In this document: one piece after another, positions 7,550 through 47,384 of the stretch | Layout: every line of letters starts with the position of its first letter | Position numbering within the stretch: position 1 is the stretch's first letter | DNA from: Fimicolochytrium jonesii | Lineage: Eukaryota | NCBI RefSeq assembly: GCF_025526975.1 | Contig: NW_026515677.1 | Location: 496,001-560,000, forward strand | Length of the DNA stretch: 64,000 nt | Reading direction: 5' to 3' | Notes under the pieces: generated by a model | Told to the model about the DNA's origin: nothing | What the model saw: only the letters and a program-made list of their open reading frames with translations | Databases searched by the model: none | Translations under genes and position numbers: made by a program

Positions 7550-8154
7550 CCTTCTACCATTCTCACGAACAGCGCATCATATTCCTCATGTTGTCCAAAC
7601 CATATTATATGAAAGTGCTCCAGCAACCGCGGTTGGCCACCACCAAACACCCGCAAAAGGATGAACCGGTAACCACCATATCGCCGCGATGTCGGGAAGC
7701 TGTATAAACGTTCTGCAAACCCTGCCAAAGCTTCGAAAGGATCGCTTCGATGATTGAAAATACAATCCTGATTATGGAAAAGCTGTACAACTAGGCGTCG
7801 GTAGTTTGAGATGAATGGGTCTTGGGCATGGAGAGTTTCGATGTGGTCCGTGATTTCGGGGCGGAAGGTGAAGAGTAGTTCAGACGTAACCATTCGTCCT
7901 GTAGAGTGCGCAGCGGACGGTTTCTGTCGAACTTCGTGCTCTTAAAGAGTATATCTTGCAACTCTGCGGCGCTCCTTCGTTCGAGGTCTTTGAGGTCCTG
8001 TTTGCTTGGTTGCGCCTGCATTGCTTTGGAAAAGCCTTACAAAATAACAATAAGGCATTTAATCGACGAAAATCAGTTGCCGGAAGCCCACTCACCGTGC
8101 GTGCTGCCGCTTGCTCTATTGATAACGGGAGTTTTGGTGCTAGCGAAGTATGTA

Positions 8155-8662
8155 CAGTCAGTGGACATAAAGCTGTGTGCATGCCAGATTAAGTCAGTGT
8201 CTGACGCGCGTTGCGCGACATCAACTCATCATCCTTAATCTTGGGGCATTGCGAAACCTGACCTAAATGAATGGATCTAGATCTGAATTTCGCTAATACC
8301 TAGTTGTCCCCCCATTGGCTGCGATTACGGCTTCTTCGATTGATAGGCGGTTGGTGCAGTGGCACTCTCGTTCGCAAACCTCTTAATAGTGTTCCTCACA
8401 GTATTCCTGTGAACGTGCTCCTGCCTTGCAATTTCAGATGTCGTCTTGCCTGCTATATGGAGGGCAACTATGGCTGCCCTTTTTTGTGGTGTGAGAGGTT
8501 TCCCCATAGCTGAGGTGGTGAAGATGTTGGCGTGCATTTCGCCATCACGGCTTCGTCGCTGGCTTCAATACTCAAGCTTGCGGCTCCAAAACGCGCGGTG
8601 CGCTTTGTGAAACGGTCATTGAAATCCATATGGGGTGCACACAGCTTTTTGTCCACTGACTG
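8155..8662 (-). mobile_element. Non-autonomous, internally deleted Tc1/mariner element (508 bp)
   Basis: 27-bp TIRs CAGTCAGTGGACA(A/T)AAAGCTGTGTGCA; TA at 8153-54 and 8663-64; matches the reverse complement of both ends of 45853-47219 with 859 bp missing. Confidence 0.97.
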
Positions 8663-8909
8663 TACGTTTTACTGAGGTTTGTTGGAGGGAGCGAAGAAGG
8701 GAGGAGCAGGAGCCTCAACCACGTGACGCCCTTGATTGGACGCCGCATCTGGTTCTGACATTGCCGCGGTTTCGGACATCGCACATTATACAGTAATAGT
8801 TCACGCCCACAGCTTCCGATGTCCATTGGAAGCGGCATACGGCATAACCTTCGATAGGGTAAATACAAAAAGCTAGAGTACTGTCGTTGGAGTCCCCCCG
8901 CCTCTACAT

Positions 8910-35879: not shown

Positions 35880-36144
35880 AGTTGCGAGAGCGAAAGTAGT
35901 TTGCGAGAGGGAGGGTGAGTAGATTGGGGGTTGCGATGAGATGGGAAGAGGAGGAGAACGAGGGTAAGGTTTGAAGTTTGCTGCTTGCGCGAGAATCTGT
36001 CCGAACTTGGAAGGTTGGAAAGGGCGAAGCGTCTGAGGCGCAGAACAACAACGACAACGGCTGTTTACAATTCGTCGACTTTGCTGAACGCACATTACCT
36101 TACGGAGCTCAGCACATGCCACCACAGTGTCGCTCCCTCTGTTC

Positions 36145-39100
36145 ATGAGTGGTTCAGCAGCAGGGCTCACACTGATATCGAAGCGTGGAACCGGACGCTC
36201 CTACGTGATATCGAGACTATTACAGGCATTTCAGCTGCACAGCAACCTCGGAAACGGTTATCACAAGTCCTCTCGAGTTTTACGCCATTATGTGCCTTTG
36301 GTCGGCCTCGCCCGTGGCAATCTCTGTCGGCAGCAGATTAGGCTGGCGAGTAGTGGACGGCGGGGTACGGAGGAGGAGGAAGAAGTGAAAGGCACGACTT
36401 CGAAAAACGATACCATGTCGCCCATGGATGGGAAACACGATCCACGGGAAACCTCATCCAGTCAATCAGCCGAGGAGATAGCGGCAAAAAATGGGCGAAA
36501 GAGATTTTTATGGGATCTCCAGACCTTAAAACGGACGACTGCGTACAAGCTGTCGCAACAGGTGTCGAAGGCGCAGACACAGGAACTGTTCAGCGCATAT
36601 CACAAGTTGAAGGCGGACGGCGATTTCGAGCGCCACGGACCTTGGCGAGGCATATTGACAGCGAAGCACTACCGTACACTCCTGCGAATGTTGGCCGCAT
36701 ACCCGGAGATCATCCCCCCACGAGAGCTGACCGCAATCTTGTTGATCATGGTCAAGCAGGGCTTGCCCATATTTTCCTCCGATTGGGCTTTGCTGCTCAC
36801 CGCGTACGCAAAAATAGGACAGGTCGCGGAAGCACAGACCATATTCGATCAATTGGATGAGAACCAAATCGACACGTTGTGCTTCAATGCCATGATCGAG
36901 GGACACACCAGTGCCGGAAACTTTGAGATTGCCGAGATGATTTACAAAAGGTTGAGCGAGTCGGGACATCCGATTACGACTAACACAACCTTATGCATGA
37001 TCAAACTTCATCTGGTCTCCCAAAATTTGGAGGCCGCTAAAGTACACTGGGACCAGTTGCGCGAATCACTCACGGATCGCTCGTCGAAAAATTTCGGCAA
37101 CGATATATTCACGTCCACCCGAGGCCTAGTTCGAACGTACACGGCAATCATTCGTTGGGCGTGTGCGAGAGATGCGGTGTCTCTCGGTCTTGAGTTCCTC
37201 AACACGATGATTTCCAGCAAAGTTCGCCCAACGCCGCAGATTTTCACCTGGTTGCTCGTCGGTTTCGCGACGATGCGAGCCAAATCCGCCGTCAAATCCG
37301 CCGATGAGCTCCATCGTCGCTTTCTCTTTCTTGAACTGACTCCGAACATCCGCTACCTGTCGGCCTTGATCAACGTCCATGCACTTCGCGGTAACATGTC
37401 CAGAATTGGGGTGCTACTGGAAGAGATGGCAGCCGTCGGAATACAACCGGATGTGCCCCTGTACAATATCTTGATACAAGCTTATGGGAAGCAGGGGAAT
37501 TTCGCGAGCGCGCATCAATGTTACGAAAGTATGATAAGCAGCAACTTGGTTCCGGATCGCTGGACTTTCTCCACACTCATCAGCATGCATGCCGACAAAG
37601 GCGATACGGAGAGCGCCAGGCATTGGTTCGACCTGTCGCAGAAGTCCCTTGGACAGACGCGCCCGAGAGTAAAGGCACCGCAAGATACCGTTATGTACAC
37701 TGCCTTGCTGATGGCATTCGGCCAAGCCGGGGATCTGGACTCCGCGCATGAAGTCCTAGCTGAGATGCGGTCAAGAGGATTGACACCCACCGCGGTCACA
37801 TATGCGATCTTAATCAAGACGACGCTGCAGGCGGGACAGTTCACGGGAGCTACAGAATGGTTCCGAGCGATGGAAAAGGACTCTGTGGAGCCGAATGCAC
37901 ACATCTACGGGCTGTTTGTCACTGGCTGTTTAGAGAACAAGCGATGGCAGCAGGCTTATAGGTGGACGAAGCAGTTTAGCGAGACAAATCTACCATTGGA
38001 TAGTCGGACGGCGGCCGTCTTGCTTCGGGCCACTATGCGATTTAAGGAACTTGATGCTGCGGTTCGCTTGAGGAAAGCGACCTCGGAGCAGCATGTTCAG
38101 GTGGATCCGGCGGTGCTTGGCAGTATGACGATCAAGTTTGCCCATGTGTGCATGAATGAGATCGAAGCGCGCGCGGCCGGGAAAACGATGATCACTAAAG
38201 ATGATTACGATCAACGGAGAGGACCCGCACTCGTCAAAGTTGAGCGGGAACACCTCGTGGAGGATCCGAAATATCATGACGACCTCATACTCCTCTTCAA
38301 GGATTACCAAGCAGCTGCAAAGAAAAACCATGAAGTATCTAACACCAACGTATATGCGGCCGTCATCGATTACCTCACCCTACGCGGCCTGATGGGCCAA
38401 GCAAAAGCCGTCTTCCTCGACATGATCAAAAACGCATGTCGGATGCGTCTCGGGCCCGTACATGTCGGATCCTACGTGTGCGCGCGAATCGCGAGGCGCT
38501 TGGCCCCATCCGATTGGACGCTTGTCGGACGCTGGACATCGGAGGTGATGCTCTGGATGGACCGGCAGATCCATGCCCATCAATCCCGGACGAGAGCAGA
38601 GAAGGAGAATCGGACAGAGTCGCTGGAAAAGGATGCGGTGTTCAAACAGCAACAAACGGGCGTGAAATTCAACCACGAGGAGATTATGAGGATGCTGCTG
38701 GCGTGTGAGGTGTTTATGTATGGGCGGTATGGGATGCGGGATGTGACTGTGGTATTGTTAAGGGATCCGCGGTATGCCGACGCTTGGCGGGTTGTTGATC
38801 GAGCTGCGGCAAGGGTTAATCTGGATAATGAGAATAGGGTGAGCGAGGCGGGGGTTGCGGCGTATTGGGAGGCTGTTTGCGTTTTGCGGAGTGCTGGGTT
38901 GCGACAGAGGATGTTCGGAGAGGCGGCGGTACCGACGATTGATGAAGTCGACGAGGGGGTGAGGGATGGGGCGACGAAGGAGATGACCGAGGAGGCATCC
39001 GTGAATCCCGACAGTGAATTGAGTCCCACGCAGGCGACCGATTCCGAAGAGGCCCTATCGGCTATTGACCCTGCGACGCCAACGGCACCAACCCTAGATG

Positions 39101-39279
39101 AAAAACTGCCCATCATCGATCCCGGCTTCTCTCGCTTCTGCGGCGCCTTACTACGCCACTGCGAACTCCATCAGCTGTGGATTCTGAGGCGGAAGGTCAT
39201 AATGTGGCTCGAGGCGCACGGCGTAGAAATCAGAACCCAACTCCCGGGGGGAGGGTTGTACCGGCCGATACGTAAATGA
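36145..39279 (+). CDS. Pentatricopeptide-repeat protein, probably mitochondrial
   Basis: Multiple 35-aa PPR motifs (PDVPLYNILIQAYGKQG, DTVMYTALLMAFGQAGD, PTAVTYAILI); basic presequence-like N-terminus. Confidence 0.93.
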   Translation: MSGSAAGLTLISKRGTGRSYVISRLLQAFQLHSNLGNGYHKSSRVLRHYVPLVGLARGNLCRQQIRLASSGRRGTEEEEEVKGTTSKNDTMSPMDGKHDPRETSSSQSAEEIAAKNGRKRFLWDLQTLKRTTAYKLSQQVSKAQTQELFSAYHKLKADGDFERHGPWRGILTAKHYRTLLRMLAAYPEIIPPRELTAILLIMVKQGLPIFSSDWALLLTAYAKIGQVAEAQTIFDQLDENQIDTLCFNAMIEGHTSAGNFEIAEMIYKRLSESGHPITTNTTLCMIKLHLVSQNLEAAKVHWDQLRESLTDRSSKNFGNDIFTSTRGLVRTYTAIIRWACARDAVSLGLEFLNTMISSKVRPTPQIFTWLLVGFATMRAKSAVKSADELHRRFLFLELTPNIRYLSALINVHALRGNMSRIGVLLEEMAAVGIQPDVPLYNILIQAYGKQGNFASAHQCYESMISSNLVPDRWTFSTLISMHADKGDTESARHWFDLSQKSLGQTRPRVKAPQDTVMYTALLMAFGQAGDLDSAHEVLAEMRSRGLTPTAVTYAILIKTTLQAGQFTGATEWFRAMEKDSVEPNAHIYGLFVTGCLENKRWQQAYRWTKQFSETNLPLDSRTAAVLLRATMRFKELDAAVRLRKATSEQHVQVDPAVLGSMTIKFAHVCMNEIEARAAGKTMITKDDYDQRRGPALVKVEREHLVEDPKYHDDLILLFKDYQAAAKKNHEVSNTNVYAAVIDYLTLRGLMGQAKAVFLDMIKNACRMRLGPVHVGSYVCARIARRLAPSDWTLVGRWTSEVMLWMDRQIHAHQSRTRAEKENRTESLEKDAVFKQQQTGVKFNHEEIMRMLLACEVFMYGRYGMRDVTVVLLRDPRYADAWRVVDRAAARVNLDNENRVSEAGVAAYWEAVCVLRSAGLRQRMFGEAAVPTIDEVDEGVRDGATKEMTEEASVNPDSELSPTQATDSEEALSAIDPATPTAPTLDEKLPIIDPGFSRFCGALLRHCELHQLWILRRKVIMWLEAHGVEIRTQLPGGGLYRPIRK

Positions 39280-39365
39280 CGCTGTACACAACAAATGGCG
39301 ATGGTGGTGGTGTATGATAGAGATAGAGTGATGACGGATTTTGGTATTTGAGAAGTAGCACAATA

Positions 39366-39475
39366 GAGGCCTCAGGCGACCTTACATGCTTGATATTTAC
39401 TACAAGTTGCCATCATCGGCGATGCCTCCGGCAGATGTACAATGATGTGGATGGCAGATAACCAGCACGGAAAAT
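39366..39475 (-). ncRNA. Putative Fanzor omegaRNA scaffold
   Basis: Starts ~20 nt after the Fanzor stop with TTTTCCGTGCTGGTT; nested stems 39461-69/39385-94 and 39450-56/39408-14, hairpin 39423-33; position expected for an omegaRNA. Confidence 0.6.
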
Positions 39476-39495
39476 GGGATGGGGTGAAATCTAGA

Positions 39496-42400
39496 CTACC
39501 GGTTACGGGAAAATGCGTCTGGTCTGCGGCCATTGCCAAACACCACCGAACGCACAATGGAGAGGAAATTCTTGGTGCTCAGGACGTCCCGATTGTGCAC
39601 TCTCATCCGTAGTCGTAGTGGTCGTCTTCCAGGAATCTCAAATGGCGTCCAGTCTTCGTTGATACATTCGGGGTTGGGGCAACCCACCAATCCATGGACG
39701 TATTCCATTCTTCCCCTTCTAGCTTGCCACGGCCGACATGACAGCCGCCGTCGGATGTTTTTCTTCACACTGCCATGGCAGTCTGGGCCACGGACGACGT
39801 TCAATACTCATCCAGCAGGTAGCATGGAATGCCGTTTCTCGCAAAGAGTGTGCGGAATCTGATTTCCATGATGAGTTAGCATATTAAAATACATAAAAAA
39901 CAACGATGGTCACTCACCCCTTGGTCTTTGATGACTCCTGAAAGCGCATTGTTTTTCCAGCGTCGCTCCAATCACCCAGGATGACCGAAAAATGCTTTCC
40001 ATACCGGTGTTGCATGTTCTTAATGAGCTTGCTCTCAGACTTTTGCCGCAGTGAGAACGCCTTGAATCTGCAAGCGACGTGAATCTCATCCCGGTGTTAT
40101 GGACGACGCGTCCATACCATGCGCTTACCTCATGACAGCATCCCAACAGTCAGTCAATGTCAATTCCCTGTCAAAACCTGACATCTGCCAAACCTCGCAG
40201 CCGCACGCAGCCGCGCTACCCCACACCTGCCACTGCCTTCATTTCTCCACGCAGCCGCACGTAGCCACACCTCCCAACACTCGGCGCTTACAAACCCTTC
40301 TCCATACTTCCCCACGTACCCGCCCACAGCCTCAGCGTAGCCACCCCATCCCCAGTCTTCTGTTTCTATGCTTCCCCACCCTTGGCGCTTCTCTTGGCTT
40401 CCCTCTCATTCCGTACCCTTCTGCTTCCCCACGCTTCCCCAGCCTTCCCAGAAAAACATAAATAGCCGCCTCCCCTGAGCTCCCCACTTCCTGATCCCCC
40501 AGCAGATCAACACCAGTTCTTCCTAGTCTTGTTCTAGTTCTTGTTTCGGTCTGAATACCATTACCTGTCAACAACCTGCACCACAAGTCGCCTCTATTTC
40601 CATCGGCTCCGCCCATTCATAACACCCGGTAAAACTCATCCAGGGCGAGATCTTGAATATGGATGTCAGCCCATGTTTACCCAAATTTGAAGACGATACA
40701 TGATACATCATACCTGCATGTATGTGATCCACAATGAACGCTGAGAACGCCTCGATGTTCATGCTCTTGTGCGATGTAATCTGTGATTCCATCTCAGCAA
40801 CGCCAGCATTGATCTTCCGCTCTGTCATGTCTCTCCGAAAGTACCACGACTTTGTCTTGACCGCCCGTTGATTGGATGTGTATCTGGTCTGGGGTGGTGC
40901 ATTGTGAGAACGCTGCAACGGAATGTCGCCGCAATGGGGATGGTGGGCGGAGACGGGGGGCTGGGGGGCGGAGACAGGGTTGGCCTCGACACCGTCATGC
41001 AGGTCATCAACATGGGCCACGCGACGAGCGATATGACGCGCGACGGCGACAAGCAAACCAACCGCGGCCGCTCTCTCATTGGCAGCGTTCCCATCGACAG
41101 CTCCGTGCTCGTCCAACTCTATCAACGAACTCCTTGCCCAGATCCGCAAGGATTCTTGCCCAGATTCGTTGCCCGTGTGTGCAAACAGGGGAACCACCCC
41201 TTCCAAGTCAAAGTCCGCAAACACCTCCGCACCATCTTCCGCAAAGTAGAGGGTTGGGGGGGGGGGGGGGGGGGGGATGGTGGGGACAGCAGGGCAGTAG
41301 TAATCAACTGAAACTTACCAAAATGGCCGCTCCTTCTCAATATCTCGACAGAACAGGAGGTCACGCTTGCCCGGATCAATGCAGACGATGTTTGGAGCCT
41401 CCCGTAGTTTGGCGATGTGGTGCTCAAAATACAACTGCTTGACTTCTTCCCGCATTTGGGCCTTGCTGCGCTTCCGGGCCCGATGCCCATACTTGAGCCC
41501 TGGCTTCTTGAAGTGGATGGTAACGGAATACCCGTCGGTGCTAATTGACCCATCGAACTTGAGACCAAGCTTCTTTCGATGTTTGAAGACCTTGTCCTAT
41601 AATCCGTCATTCAGCGACGTAATCTGATTGAAATAAGCACATAAGGATAGAGACTTACATTCACGTTGATAAACTGCCCCCACAGCTCCCGCTTGCGTTC
41701 ATCAGTGAGTTTCCCCATGCGACGTCGGCCAACATCCAGGATATGAGTGCCTAGGATCAGCGTGTCGATCCGAACAGATGACCGGATTCGAGATTTGCGC
41801 AGTGGGATAGCGGAAAACAGCCGCATTCCACGGCGCTCATAGAGGCGTGAGAGCTCACAATAGGCACCTGTGGTGAGACAGGAGTGGACCATGATTAGAC
41901 AAAAGAGGAAGCCAGGGGGAGGTGGGGGGGGGGGGGGCGAAGGGGGCGAGCGGTTACGTCGACGCCGTGGCGGTGGGCAAGAGCATCGGCCGTGCCCCGG
42001 GCCGCTGTGCGCGCACTGGGGGCGTCGTTGAGGCGGGGGAGGAAGGGGGGAGAAGGGGGGGGGCCGCAGGAGCCAAGCGTGCGGGCGCCCCAGGGGCGAC
42101 AGCGCATCGCAAACCACGTTGGCCGGGGTCCGGGCAGGCAGCCACTCGGCCAGGTCGGCATACCAAGCGTGGCACTGCACAGCCACACACGAGCCTGGGG
42201 GGGGGGGTGAATATACAGGATGCAACTCACCTAAATATGGCATTGCATCCACCGCAAGGCTGTACGCAAGCGGCTCATCCTGGGGAGGACACAGAGCCCA
42301 TAGCTCGTCGAGGACAGTCCGCTCAAGTCGTGTGAGGCGCGCAAACTCCTCTTCGGTTGGAAACTCTTCAAACGTCCCAAATTTTGTAAATTGACGGACC

Positions 42401-43367
42401 CGCTGATAATACTCTCTCCGCTGCGCTCGGTTGACTCTGGCTCTCCAGAGATGCAGTGCGACTTGCTTCAAACCAATCCTTTCGTTGATGTAGCGCAGAA
42501 GCATTTGCATGAAATGCTCTTGTACGTTGACTTTGAGGTTTGTGAGGATGCTCTGAGCCGTGTATGCTGCTGTCTGTTGGCAATTTTGCATGCGTATGGA
42601 GGCGAATCCGTGAACATCACAGTGGTCTTGAACCCATGGACGCAACTCTTGCGCGATGACCGGATTGCCGTTGTAGCCTGGATTGTTGAGCAGCTCAAAC
42701 ATCACACTGATGTGCTTGTCAGTGATGTCCGGGAAATCGTGCAGAGGATGATCAGCTGCGGTGGGCATTGTAGTCAGGACATTGTTGTATGGGAAATATA
42801 CAGTGTAGTGTACGCCAAAAACTCACCAAGGTAGTACTTGAGGAAGAAGGTGGTGTGGCGCGCAAGGATGTGAACATTGCCGATGGATGTTGTCAGGCGC
42901 TCCCTTTGAACTTGATTCTGATGATTCTGATTATGGATTTGAGGAAGGGAAATCTTGGTGCAGGCATGTGTCTGCTGGCGGCGTCGTTGAACGGGTGGTG
43001 GTGGCGGGGGCTCATACGCCAGGGATCCACCCGGTGTGCTGGGAAAACGGAAAGGGATGGGAGCTGGGAGGTTCAACGGATGCTGCAGACCCCTGTCGAC
43101 GAGTGAAAGCCCTCGATGCTGGTGCTGCCCATCGTCATCGCCGGAACTCTCGCTGACCATGTCTGCAATGGCTTTGGGCAAGTTGCGATGGATAGACGGT
43201 GGGAACTCAAATTGCGGGTGTGATTGCAATGGTGTCTGCACAGTTGGCAGACGTATGGGCAACCGCGGGGTAGCCGGAGCAACCTTCCTCCTCTTCCGCC
43301 GTGGTGTGGTTGCTCCAGTAAAGATGCCACACCACAGGTGCCCCTGGAGCGCCTGGTCTGATGACAT
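39496..43367 (-). pseudogene. Fanzor1 (eukaryotic TnpB-like RuvC nuclease), 7 exons, disrupted
   Basis: Exons 43367-42827, 42755-42231, 41867-41659, 41596-41319, 40883-40714, 40651-39918 (LTR removed), 39858-39496; motifs FDGSISTDGYSV, IVCIDPGKRDLL, YTSNQR, ILGDWS, LLDEY.TSS, (C)PDC...HGLVGCPNPEC, HNRDVLSTKN. Confidence 0.93.
40095..40624 (+). mobile_element. Solo LTR (530 bp) inserted in Fanzor exon 6
   Basis: Ends TGTTATG...CATAACA; perfect 5-bp TSD CCCGG at 40090-94 and 40625-29; TATA-like CATAAATAG at ~40458 suggests orientation; removal restores the Fanzor frame. Confidence 0.9.
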
Positions 43368-43977
43368 GTTGGGTGTGCTGTGCCTTTTGCGTGCCTGCTA
43401 GAGATGAGGTGTATGCAGGTGATTGCCGTGATGGATTGCCGGGAAGGAAGGGGGTTGAAGGAGTAGAGTGGGGATCCCCACGTTTTTTACACGCGTGTAA
43501 AGGATGTGGGGCAGCTCTGGGGTTGATTGTGGAACTCGTTACTTTATTCCCCTTCACACATTGGGAGCCGCCGGAGGCGAGTGACGGCTATGGCAGCAAA
43601 GTACAGTATGTCAAGTTGGCAAGCGCTACACTGCGCTATATAGTAACCCTCCCTACGCAGCCCAACCACAGTGATTCGCAAAAGCCTAAGCTATGTAAAT
43701 GTGGGAATCAATATGCACTTATAGGGAGATTGATGAATTGCACGCATTTTTTCACCCATAATCATCGGATCTCAGTAGAGATGGAGGTGGGCGGCGTGAA
43801 GTAATGAAGTCTTCTTCAGAAAGCAGTTCCATCATGGTTGTGGCTTCATCACCGGTGAGCGTAGTGCCGCTAGACCAACGTATTGCTAGAGCAACATATT
43901 GGATGCTGATGCCTTGGGGCTTGAATGCAGTGCTCAGGCTGAAAGAGTTGTCGCCTTTGTTCTCGACTATGACAGCG

Positions 43978-44171
43978 AAGCGATTGCGGAAGGCGCGAGA
44001 GCGTACCGCGAGTGCCCAAATCCAGGCTGCACCTCAAGCGATTGCAGGAGTCGAGAGCGTACCGCGAGTGCCCAAATCCAGGCTGCACCTCAAGCGATTG
44101 CAGGAGTCGAGAGCGTACCGCGAGACTGCCCCTATTCCGGGCTGCCCCAAGCGATTGCGGAAGGCGAGAGC
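43978..44171. repeat. 56-bp minisatellite, ~3.3 copies
   Basis: Unit CGAGAGCGTACCGCGAGTGCCCAAATCCAGGCTGCACCTCAAGCGATTGCAGGAGT at 43996 and 44052 (identical), diverged copy at 44108. Confidence 0.92.
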
Positions 44172-44343: not shown

Positions 44344-44426
44344 TGGCAATGGCGGCGGCAATGGCGGTGGCAATGGCGATGGCAATGGTGATGGCAATGG
44401 GGGTGACCATGGTGGCAATGGCGGTG
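44344..44426. repeat. Degenerate TGGCAA/TGGCGG hexamer repeat
   Basis: tggcaatggcggcggcaatggcggtggcaatggcgatggcaatgg... seen directly. Confidence 0.85.
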
Positions 44427-44590
44427 AGCGGATGTGGAAGAACAGATGAAGAAAACCTGCGGCTATGGGACAGCGTAGTAACAAGGCTGGCCACGGCGGC
44501 GTTGCGAAGTGCAGGTCCAGGGCTGGCCAGAAGTGCAGTACCGTATATTGGGTACATTTTGACTGTTGGATGATGGTCAGAAGTGGTTAA

Positions 44591-44891
44591 TTCCCAAATA
44601 AGGGAATTCTTCTGGTTCACTTGCCGCCGTGAAGGGTGGCCAGGGCTGGCCAGGGCACCGGATATTGCGCGCGTCGTGGATCAGTGTACCAGCGAAGGGT
44701 TTGGCCAGATGAAGTGGAAGGCTCTAATAAATTGGCCAGATGAAGTAGGGCTCCAAAGGCGCGCGTGAGAAATACACTTCATTTGGCCAGATGCTCTAAT
44801 ATTAATACACTTCACTGGCCAGATGAAGCGCGCGTGAGAAATACACACTCCCCAGCGGCAAATGTACCAGAAGGATTCCCTTATTTGGGAA
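44591..44891. mobile_element. MITE-like element with 37-bp inverted repeats
   Basis: 44591-44627 vs 44855-44891 are reverse complements with 3 mismatches; interior has repeated TGGCCAGATG and GCGCGTGAGAAATACAC motifs; no clear TSD. Confidence 0.6.
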
Positions 44892-45076
44892 GAATCCAGG
44901 GAGATGTAAAAGCAAGGAAATCGAAATCGGATGTGCCGCCGCAACCCCAAGACATGTCCCGCTGTCCCGGTCGCGCTGACACCCACACAAACCGACACAC
45001 ACAGACGGCCCTTGGCCAGAAGGCTCTAATAACGTTAGTAAGCTTGCCAGGGCTCCAAAGGCGTGCGTGAGAAATA

Positions 45077-45445
45077 CAGTGCCGTTCATAAAGCAAGGCC
45101 GCTGTCAATTTGATTCACCGGCCCCCTGAACGCGCGTCTAGTATATCTAGTGAATCCTCCTCTAGCTGCTATGACGGCCGCTATACGCCGGGGCATGCTC
45201 GACACAAGGTTTTCTAGCACATCTAGCTCAATATCCTGAAATGTCTGCTGTGCAATGGCCTCTAGCTGCTCTAAAGTTGCGGGACGTTGTCTATAAATGC
45301 ATTTCTTGAGCATGGACCACAGGTTTTCTATCGGATTCAAGTCTGGGCTGATTGCAGGCCAGTTTGCCAGTACCTCAATGCCGTGGAGATCAAAAAATCC
45401 TTCCCTGCAAGTTTTGCGATGGGGTGGAGCGTTATCCTGGGAAGA
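45077..45445 (-). mobile_element. 5'-truncated second Tc1-family element (transposase C-terminus plus one terminus)
   Basis: QDNAPPH...WPAISPDLNPIENLW...SMPRRIAAVIAARGGFTRY; terminus TA|CAGTGCCGTTCA at 45075-77; sequence upstream of QDN is unrelated. Confidence 0.88.
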
Positions 45446-45594
45446 AACACTCTGAGCGTCACCGCCAATCCAAAAAGGAGAGAAACAAGGTACACACCTG
45501 CATGAAAACAAAACCACGCTGCTCACCCTGAATATCAGAGTAGAAGGGGATGAGATTCTCGGAGAGATATTCCTGGTATGCTTCCGAGTTGAGT

Positions 45595-45691
45595 CTAACC
45601 CTAACCCTAACCCTAACACTAGGGTTTTGAGGTTTGGAATTGCGAGATGGTAGGTCAAGAACCCTAACCCTAACCCTAACCCTAACCCTAA
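45595..45691. repeat. Interstitial telomeric repeats (CCCTAA/TTAGGG), two tracts
   Basis: ~4 units at 45595-45618 and 5 perfect units at 45662-45691. Confidence 0.9.
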
Positions 45692-45852
45692 GTCAGAGCA
45701 GATGTGGTAAGAAGGTAAGAAGGAATCAGAGGGCAGCGACGCGAGGGGAAGGTAAGAAGGCTGGTAAGAAGGAATCAGAGGGAATATGGGGTCACGTGGG
45801 GGGACACGGACGTCGCGGACATGGATTAGAGTAAAGAATGAGGAAGGATGTA

Positions 45853-47219
45853 CAGTCAGTGGACAAAAAGCTGTGTGCACCCCATATGGATTTCAATGAC
45901 CGTTTCACAAAGCGCACCGCGCGTTTTGGAGCCGCAAGCTTGAGTATTGAAGCCAGCGACGAAGCCGTGATGGCGAAATGCACGCCAACATCTTCACCAC
46001 CTCAGCTATGGGGAAACCTCTCACACCACAAAAAAGGGCAGCCATAGTTGCCCTCCATATAGCAGGCAAGACGACATCTGAAATTGCAAGGCAGGAGCAC
46101 GTTCACAGGAATACTGTGAGGAACACTATTAAGAGGTTTGCGAACGAGAGTGCCACTGCACCAACCGCCTATCAATCGAAGAAGCCAACAGGAAGACCAG
46201 CTAAGTACCAGCCTTCTGACGATGATTTGGCTGCCTTCCGCAGTATTGTTGTTGCTGACAGTAGCACTCGGGAGAAAACACTAAAACAGATCACTTTTGA
46301 ATTCACACAGCTCACCGGACTCCAGGTGTCTGCAAAAACAGTGCGTCGCTACCTACGGGACCTGCTCTATCTCACCTCGCGTTTCAAGGTCCGAAAGCCA
46401 CTATTGACAGAGGACCATAAAGCAGCACGCCTTGCATTTGCACTGCAGCACCAAGACTGGACGGAAGCGGACTGGTCTCGTGTTTTCTGGACTGATGAGA
46501 CGTCCTTTGAAATTGGCTGGGTACCTAAAATGCGGTGCTGGCGCTTACGAACTGAACGTTTTCATCCCAATTGCATCCAGGGCACCAGGAAGAGTGGACG
46601 AAAAACATTCATGTATTGGGGAGCATTCATTGGAAATGCAGTAGGTCCAATGAAAGAGATGCAGCGTGTTCAGCGAGAGGGTCAAAACCGTGGAGGGATT
46701 AACTCTCCTGCCTATGTGCAACATCTTACTGCTAACATGTTGCCGATGTGGCGGAATTTAGAGATTTTTCTTCCCAATCCTCTCTTCATGCAGGACAACG
46801 CCCCTATTCATACATCGGCTGAAACTCGACAGTTCTTTGATGAACACGGCATTGAGCTTCTTCCCTGGCCAGCGCAGAGTCCAGATCTCAATCCGATTGA
46901 GAATCTGTGGGCAATGCTCAAACGGAAGGTATCGAAAGCGAACCCTACCCCTGGAATGTTGGACAACGTTGTGCAAACTATATGGCCCACAATGCAGCCG
47001 CATCTTGATGCATTGACACGGTCAATGCCATCAAGAATGGCAGCCGTAATCGCAGCCAATGGGGGGACAACTAGGTATTAGCGAAATTCAGATCTAGATC
47101 CATTCATTTAGGTCAGGTTTCGCAATGCCCCAAGATTAAGGATGATGAGTTGATGTCGCGCAACGCGCGTCAGACACTGACTTAATCTGGCATGCACACA
47201 GCTTTATGTCCACTGACTG
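45853..47219 (+). mobile_element. Intact autonomous Tc1/mariner transposon (1367 bp)
   Basis: 27-bp TIRs with 1 mismatch; TA TSD at 45851-52 and 47220-21; uninterrupted transposase ORF. Confidence 0.98.
45978..47081 (+). CDS. Tc1-family DD34E transposase (start may be ATG 46008)
   Basis: N-terminal HTH plus GRP motif; VFWTDE; QDNAPIH with 34 residues to the E of SPDLNPIE; ends GGTTRY*. Confidence 0.97.
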   Translation: MHANIFTTSAMGKPLTPQKRAAIVALHIAGKTTSEIARQEHVHRNTVRNTIKRFANESATAPTAYQSKKPTGRPAKYQPSDDDLAAFRSIVVADSSTREKTLKQITFEFTQLTGLQVSAKTVRRYLRDLLYLTSRFKVRKPLLTEDHKAARLAFALQHQDWTEADWSRVFWTDETSFEIGWVPKMRCWRLRTERFHPNCIQGTRKSGRKTFMYWGAFIGNAVGPMKEMQRVQREGQNRGGINSPAYVQHLTANMLPMWRNLEIFLPNPLFMQDNAPIHTSAETRQFFDEHGIELLPWPAQSPDLNPIENLWAMLKRKVSKANPTPGMLDNVVQTIWPTMQPHLDALTRSMPSRMAAVIAANGGTTRY

Positions 47220-47384
47220 TACAGATGAAGTAGTGGGAGCCTACATTATGTGCTATCTACGGGCGCGATCTACAGTACATAAGTTTCACGCGTAAGCCGT
47301 TCAGGCATCTCCTCGAAGAAAAGACAAATGCTTCGAAGCGCAATCGGTCGACAATCGAGCGCGCTGGTGAGCGCACTCATTGCG

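Follow-up and report, generated by a model that had tools for sequence, protein, structure and literature searches.

The window analysed here, 64,000 nucleotides from the soil chytrid fungus Fimicolochytrium jonesii (contig NW_026515677.1, positions 496,001 to 560,000), carries a broken Fanzor1 gene on its minus strand and, directly 3' of it on the same strand, a region (39345-39480) that is likely a Fanzor1 omegaRNA locus. The gene and its surroundings comprise the following features.

36088-39279 (plus strand): neighbouring PPR-repeat gene, convergent with the Fanzor1 gene (stop-to-stop frame, stop at 39277-39279)
39496-43367 (minus): Fanzor1 gene, pseudogenised, with six GT-AG introns of 59-435 nt
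43367-42827, 42755-42231, 41867-41659, 41596-41319, 40883-40714, 40651-39918 and 39858-39496 (minus): Fanzor1 exons, 40651-39918 being split by an insert
40883-41320 (minus): premature TGA over the exon 4/5 junction, where paralogues have Arg
40095-40624 (minus): 530-bp insertion in exon 6 that reads TG...CA from end to end, carries short terminal inverted repeats and shows a target duplication of 5 bp
39801-39803 (minus): premature TGA two codons past the RuvC-II glutamate, with a frameshift next to it at about 39788
43544-43608 (minus): candidate left end of the element, a degenerate inverted repeat of 39398/39401-39461 found by local alignment

The Fanzor1 copy in the window is dead: two nonsense codons, one frameshift and the LTR-like insert, which is likely a solo LTR, leave no intact nuclease ORF in cis. 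Exon 4 matches the SpuFz1 structure 8gkh (chain 8gkh_P) with an E value of 1.7e-17, and exon 2 is 100% identical to one F. jonesii gene model, with 15 more F. jonesii models and Spizellomyces punctatus proteins (33-43% identity) also matching; Pfam returned no family for four Fanzor queries. We collected 61 F. jonesii Fanzor1 gene models, 42 of which include the RuvC-III C-terminal region and 39 of which reach the native C-terminus. The full-length paralogue P0043 is 45% identical to SpuFz1, and all four aligned paralogues have equivalents of D383/E541/D606, the RuvC D-E-D triad and the zinc finger, as well as the RNA contacts W570, R414, R387, W596, N604, R564, R317 and K312, while several further SpuFz1 RNA-contact residues are changed. 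An insertion of about 12 residues after W596 lies beside the residues that bind stem-loop 1 (SL1), so the F. jonesii omegaRNA may differ from that of SpuFz1. Two introns (41868-42230 and 40884-41318) are long and GC-rich, with poly-C tracts, and are apparently family features, since gene models P0015 and P0016 match parts of them. The exon 6 insert itself recalls the Gypsy insertions reported in Spu-1 copies (PMC10432273).

A sequence-only reading of this DNA had placed an omegaRNA about 20 nt after the Fanzor stop, and exactly 20 nt do separate the TAG (39498-39496, minus strand) from 39475, which we take as omegaRNA position 1. The strings that it quoted also lie on the minus strand where it put them (UUUUCCGUGCUGGUU at 39474-39460, UGCCAUC at 39456-39450, UGCCGGAGGCA at 39433-39423, GAUGGCA at 39414-39408 and AUCAAGCAUG at 39394-39385). 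The similarity to the start of the SpuFz1 scaffold that it pointed out holds: that string appears in a supplementary table of PMC10432273, and by eye minus-strand positions 2-19 are identical to it at 15 of 18 positions. The motif WTCC-N7-TTRTC has two matches in the window against 2.16 expected, one of them directly after the Fanzor stop, and by simple arithmetic the probability of a chance match in the 40-nt stretch after the stop is about 7e-4. The 5' U-C-C is followed by a local SL1 with a UURUC(G)-type loop, in which six of seven pairs form and the loop is one base longer. The informative, non-random part of the segment is this 5' motif.

Rfam gave three matches in all (E 1-10), none inside the omegaRNA region; none of the 61 paralogous F. 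jonesii gene models extends into it, and none of seven candidates matched a plus-strand frame over it. A match to a minus-strand frame, to an ankyrin-repeat protein, was spurious. Within the window we found no second copy, ghost or near-perfect inverted repeat.

The structure that the sequence-only reading drew, an outer stem around a perfect 7-bp inner stem and a small hairpin, fared less well than its placement. All three helices can be drawn but are no better than chance. The fold of 39345-39480 has -29.8 kcal/mol (z +0.30), a stability that 115 of 200 shuffles match; the three helices jointly reach -24.7 against a minimum free energy (MFE) of -29.8 kcal/mol in a 127-nt RNA, a penalty of about 5 kcal/mol; and the pairs of the inner stem have probabilities of 0.10-0.18, those of the outer stem 0.26-0.46. 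Moreover, the 3' arm of the outer stem can pair locally, within the hairpin 39390-39357. As a long-range pairing, the outer stem would also open the SL1 loop that SpuFz1 binds, pair the protein-contacting C7 and leave almost no linker (PMC10432273). That fold and its guide boundary are probably wrong; what holds is a likely minus-strand omegaRNA locus starting near 39475, with a different fold, scaffold length and guide start.

SpuFz1 offers a template for these. Its 75-nt scaffold is followed by a 14-15-nt guide, the protein contacts U5, C6, C7 and the SL1 loop, and a linker of 6 nt is followed by stem 2 (U35 to A75; PMC10432273), in which the U35 and G37 bases are also contacted. Three Fz1 structures share a 7-bp SL1 with little constraint beyond it (PMC11423790), and the Fanzor1 scaffold is described as including the target-site duplication (PMC10711439). 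Our best model, to which we give about an even chance, is a predicted 75-nt scaffold (39475-39401) followed by a guide of about 15 nt from the flank (39400-39386), with these parts.

39476-39495 (minus): 20-nt spacer between the stop and the predicted 5' end of the omegaRNA (21 nt in SpuFz1)
39401-39475 (minus): predicted 75-nt omegaRNA scaffold, from the computed fold
39447-39468 (minus): predicted SL1, positions 8-29, with six Watson-Crick pairs, a 1x2 internal loop and the loop UUAUCUG
39440-39446 (minus): predicted 7-nt linker, from the computed fold
39401-39439 (minus): predicted stem 2, positions 37-75, with closing pair U37-A75
39386-39400 (minus): predicted 15-nt guide from flanking DNA, by analogy with SpuFz1
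39357-39390 (minus): separate 13-bp hairpin (-10.5 kcal/mol), part of the flank in this model and a third stem in a 120-nt alternative

The unconstrained MFE structure of the isolated 39475-39401 segment consists of SL1 (8-29) and a stem (37-75). Predicted SL1 pairs G8-C29, U9-A28, G10-C27, U12-A24, G13-C23 and G14-C22, is imperfect in that C11 is unpaired, and lies directly 3' of U5-C6-C7. Stem 2 closes on TA 39402-39401, a candidate target-site duplication, and positions 74-75 read UA, as in SpuFz1, position 75 being 39401. Across 73 3' ends tried, from 55 to 127 nt, the SL1-plus-stem topology appears solely at 75 nt. It arises in 1 of 3000 shuffles, a count that rises to 6 of 3000 if the first 7 nt are kept in place; when any end is allowed it arises in 7 of 150, and in 1 of 150 if a TA end is required. 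With SL1 held fixed, 32 of 600 shuffles close at 72-78 nt and 6 of 600 do so with a UA end. The 75-nt end and the criteria for the topology were borrowed from SpuFz1, and scoring was done under several schemes. The stability of the 75-nt scaffold is at shuffle level (z +0.36). When the native 15-nt guide is attached, it pairs with the 5' strand of SL1 (-20.7 vs -17.0), and the SL1 probability is about 0.02; as the free RNA with its guide prefers the outer stem, the model has to assume protein binding or folding during transcription. The guide region lies 107-121 nt beyond the stop of the PPR gene, and the predicted guide (39386-39400) is antisense to the DNA just past that stop, so the PPR and omegaRNA transcripts may overlap.

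Of all matches in the 1 kb that precedes the gene, the inverted repeat 39408-39461/43595-43544 scores best (5 of 500 shuffles), and it can be followed to TA 39401 and TA 43603 (P about 0.03), the latter 236 nt ahead of the ATG. This degenerate upstream repeat, in which 67 of 107 columns agree (63% identity), indicates the same end as the 75-nt fold. The match is weaker when 4 kb are searched (5-28 of 200 in three scoring schemes, not significant in the fourth), and in three of four schemes the full alignment reaches 39356 rather than 39401; the terminal stem reaches TA 39402-39401, but the inverted-repeat searches do not fix the element end independently. On the left, the start may be TA 43603-43602 or TA 43608-43607, the latter preceded by CA, and the left-end options give TGTA, CATA and TATA as candidate TAMs. 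The window contains no near-perfect 30-33-bp terminal inverted repeat of the Spu-1 kind, only the 63% degenerate one. Helitron2 elements have 8-15-bp asymmetric terminal repeats, a 5' hairpin and a 3' subterminal hairpin (PMC3627910); no clean 8-15-bp match to such ends was found in the window, and the hairpin 39390-39357 follows the inner repeat.

Other mobile DNA lies upstream of the candidate left end. A complete Tc1/mariner element at 45849-47223 (plus strand) has inverted repeats of 39 bp, ends in TA and keeps a DDE transposase frame of 376 aa open, and its family moved recently, given a 100%-identical internal-deletion derivative at 8151-8665. A C-terminal fragment of another Tc1-like transposase (45063-45480, minus strand) adjoins telomere-like TTAGGG repeats at 45595-45702; we considered this truncated gene (end about 45063) as part of the Fanzor element and rejected it, as by eye it has its own terminus. 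Also upstream of the Fanzor left end are 56-bp tandem repeats at 43978-44170, one frame of which reads a CPNPxC motif, and 12-bp tandem repeats at 44344-44415. A cluster of short direct and inverted repeats at 44584-45078 probably represents remnants of another element, with a similar motif also present ahead of the Tc1 end near 47230.

Four alternatives to the 75-nt model bear on where the scaffold ends and whether it is one at all. The best placed, which we still regard as unlikely, puts the element end at TA 39357-39356, within a degenerate terminal inverted repeat of about 100 bp with its left end at 43638, and thus predicts a 120-nt three-stem scaffold with a guide from 39355. In three of four schemes, 39356-39461 aligns with 43638-43544 and both sides start with TAGC (1, 6 and 16 of 500 shuffles); a TA-anchored score gives P 0.008 at 36 nt but P 0.18 at 30 nt, and taken by itself the outer segment scores no better than chance (1087 of 2000 shuffles). 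SL1, stem 2 and the 39390-39357 hairpin together reach -28.5 against the MFE of -29.8. An alternative terminal stem (U74-A120, A75-U119, G76-C118), preceded by a 6-nt linker that begins AA, would resemble the base of the SpuFz1 stem, and the conserved equivalents of SpuFz1 Q482 and K312 suit its U74-A75-G76 better than the U37-A38-C39 of the 75-nt model; yet the probability of this stem is 0.00-0.01, with a penalty of 4-8 kcal/mol. Among published scaffolds, GtFz1 has several stems (PMC11423790), whereas that of the close relative SpuFz1 is 75 nt.

Next in order, and likewise unlikely, is that we see a decayed remnant, or plain 3' DNA, that lost the ability to yield a functional omegaRNA or never had it. 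The four inactivating lesions of the gene fit such decay, as do the imperfect SL1 and the chance-level z-scores; against it, the 5' motif has the spacing seen in SpuFz1 and 15/18 identity, and the two-stem topology is kept. A 78-nt scaffold of the same fold, ending at TA 39399-39398 with a guide from 39397, appears improbable. It would make the left end CA|TA 43608 and so yield the SpuFz1 TAM, CATA, with the same left-end score as for 39401 and with the TAM-reading residues Q129, Q130, R291 and Y345 conserved, but stem 2 closes at 75 and would leave a 3-nt tail, unlike SpuFz1; the TAM residues R96 and N133 are changed, and a CA ahead of any one of the three candidate TAs would be no rarity (about 0.18, by arithmetic). 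Least probable of all is the layout of the sequence-only reading, with its long-range outer stem and a scaffold of about 110 nt (112 nt to 39364, guide from 39363), for although the outer stem is present in the free-RNA MFE of 90-136-nt windows, the end reads CUA as in SpuFz1 and the protein has an insertion near its SL1-binding residues, the right end 39364 has no matching left end (P 0.50-0.76), the homologue L003 has a local SL1, and the fold carries the penalties given above.

Whichever boundary holds, we are fairly confident that the locus is omegaRNA-derived and probably usable. A scan for related loci retained five metagenomic loci from 310 candidates, with none from 115 candidate stretches in viral contigs and none from 21 in prokaryote genomes. 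Because L001 and L002 represent one locus and the 3' end is missing from L004 and L005, only two independent 3' ends remain (L001 and L003), too few for covariation, and a MAFFT alignment of these with the window was out of register. In L003, TCC is accompanied by a stem of 6-7 bp with the loop TTGTCG, a linker of 6 nt and a terminal stem; in L001, TCC is followed by a short local hairpin less regular than that of L003, and the local SL1 is present in its 90-nt fold but absent from the unconstrained 76-nt fold. Local alignment gives no significance to the candidate terminal repeat of L001 (183 of 500) and none was seen for L003, so neither was used to support the boundary. Both are candidate Fanzor1 omegaRNAs in their own right, L003 3190-3242 as a compact scaffold of about 53 nt that overlaps the ORF end and L001 7944-8019 as one of about 76 nt whose TA end lies within a palindromic site.

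If the 75-nt model is correct and SpuFz1 is a guide to its workings, the transcript would run off the right end of the element and be trimmed to about 90 nt, U5-C6-C7 and SL1 would bind the RuvC/NUC surface, and stem 2, ending at the TA duplication, would dock on WED and set the start of the guide. The complex might then cleave the empty insertion site, with left flank plus TA serving as the adjacent TAM, and repair of the cut would restore the element, a putative element-retention role drawn from the available work on TnpB. With R96 and N133 changed among the TAM-reading residues of the F. jonesii protein, its TAM may be other than CATA. As the window copy cannot make nuclease, its RNA could act only in trans, with protein from an intact paralogue; ghost scaffolds of S. 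punctatus can act in trans in cell assays (PMC10432273). The window copy may also simply be decaying. A broader and speculative reading, which we think unlikely, is that in this intron-rich family, of at least 39 gene 3' ends, broken copies supply omegaRNAs with guides from their own flanks to a few intact nucleases, thereby forming a dispersed guide library, possibly with a 120-nt three-stem scaffold matched by the NUC insertion and a TAM unlike that of SpuFz1.

Fanzor1 omegaRNAs are experimentally established, and one Fanzor1, SpuFz1, is being actively engineered as a genome-editing tool. F. jonesii proteins already appear in 33 rows of the Fanzor hit table in the PMC10711439 supplement, with no mention of the species seen in the available main text, and intron-containing Fanzors are known as well (PMC10530073). 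With omegaRNAs established and the F. jonesii proteins listed, a specialist would not be surprised by this locus. No published description of this RNA was found in the literature and supplements searched, and large PDF supplements outside that search could hold one; the supplement searches of PMC10432273 and PMC10530073 are weak evidence of absence, given that Spizellomyces itself gave 0 in PMC10530073, and the available portions of PMC13434818 and PMC12247965 had nothing specific to add. In practical terms, the locus offers a candidate scaffold for a SpuFz1 orthologue whose TAM-reading residues are altered, together with a natural variant of SL1 that carries pair-keeping changes, and this large, mostly broken family allows one to ask whether dead copies feed guides in trans.

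SpuFz1 and Spu-1 from S. punctatus (PMC10432273, PMC3627910, 8gkh) provide the main comparison, with the paralogue protein 45% identical. In both, the omegaRNA starts shortly after the stop (20 nt here, 21 nt in SpuFz1) with the 5' motif UUUUCCG-N-GC-N-GGUU-R-UC, SL1, a linker and a terminal stem whose closing UA is at 74-75 (predicted here), and both belong to multi-copy families with LTR-type insertions in some copies. Within SL1, changes relative to SpuFz1 keep pairs by eye at position 9 (A9-U to U9-A), position 10 (G10.U to G10-C) and position 12 (to U-A), whereas the pair at position 11 is broken here and the stem 2 sequence is unrelated. The gene here has six introns instead of the single ORF of Spu-1, and the protein differs from SpuFz1 in a proline-rich N-terminal extension of about 130 aa, the NUC-region insertion of about 12 aa, DPG in place of DPN and the changed TAM residues R96 and N133. 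Furthermore, the Spu-1 inverted repeat is near-perfect over 30-33 bp and the one here is degenerate, and this copy is a pseudogene.

Other known systems share individual traits with the locus. The omegaRNA of PpFz1 (Parasitella parasitica; PMC11423790, PMC10432273, as far as these describe it) has TCC, a 7-bp SL1 with a UUAUC loop as in the window, and one further stem, though this stem 2 is shorter and the protein is distant (E 0.011 vs exon 4). Like the copy in the window, CrFNuc-1 of Chlamydomonas (PMC10530073) is an intron-containing, multi-copy Fanzor1 with a 3' non-coding RNA; unlike it, CrFNuc-1 resides in a Helitron2 host element, and no cleavage by it was detected in PMC10530073. Finally, ghost Spu-1 omegaRNAs, as described in PMC10432273, lack the ORF altogether, whereas here the ORF is present but broken and the function in trans is putative; in both cases, a guide-RNA locus stands without a working nuclease in cis.
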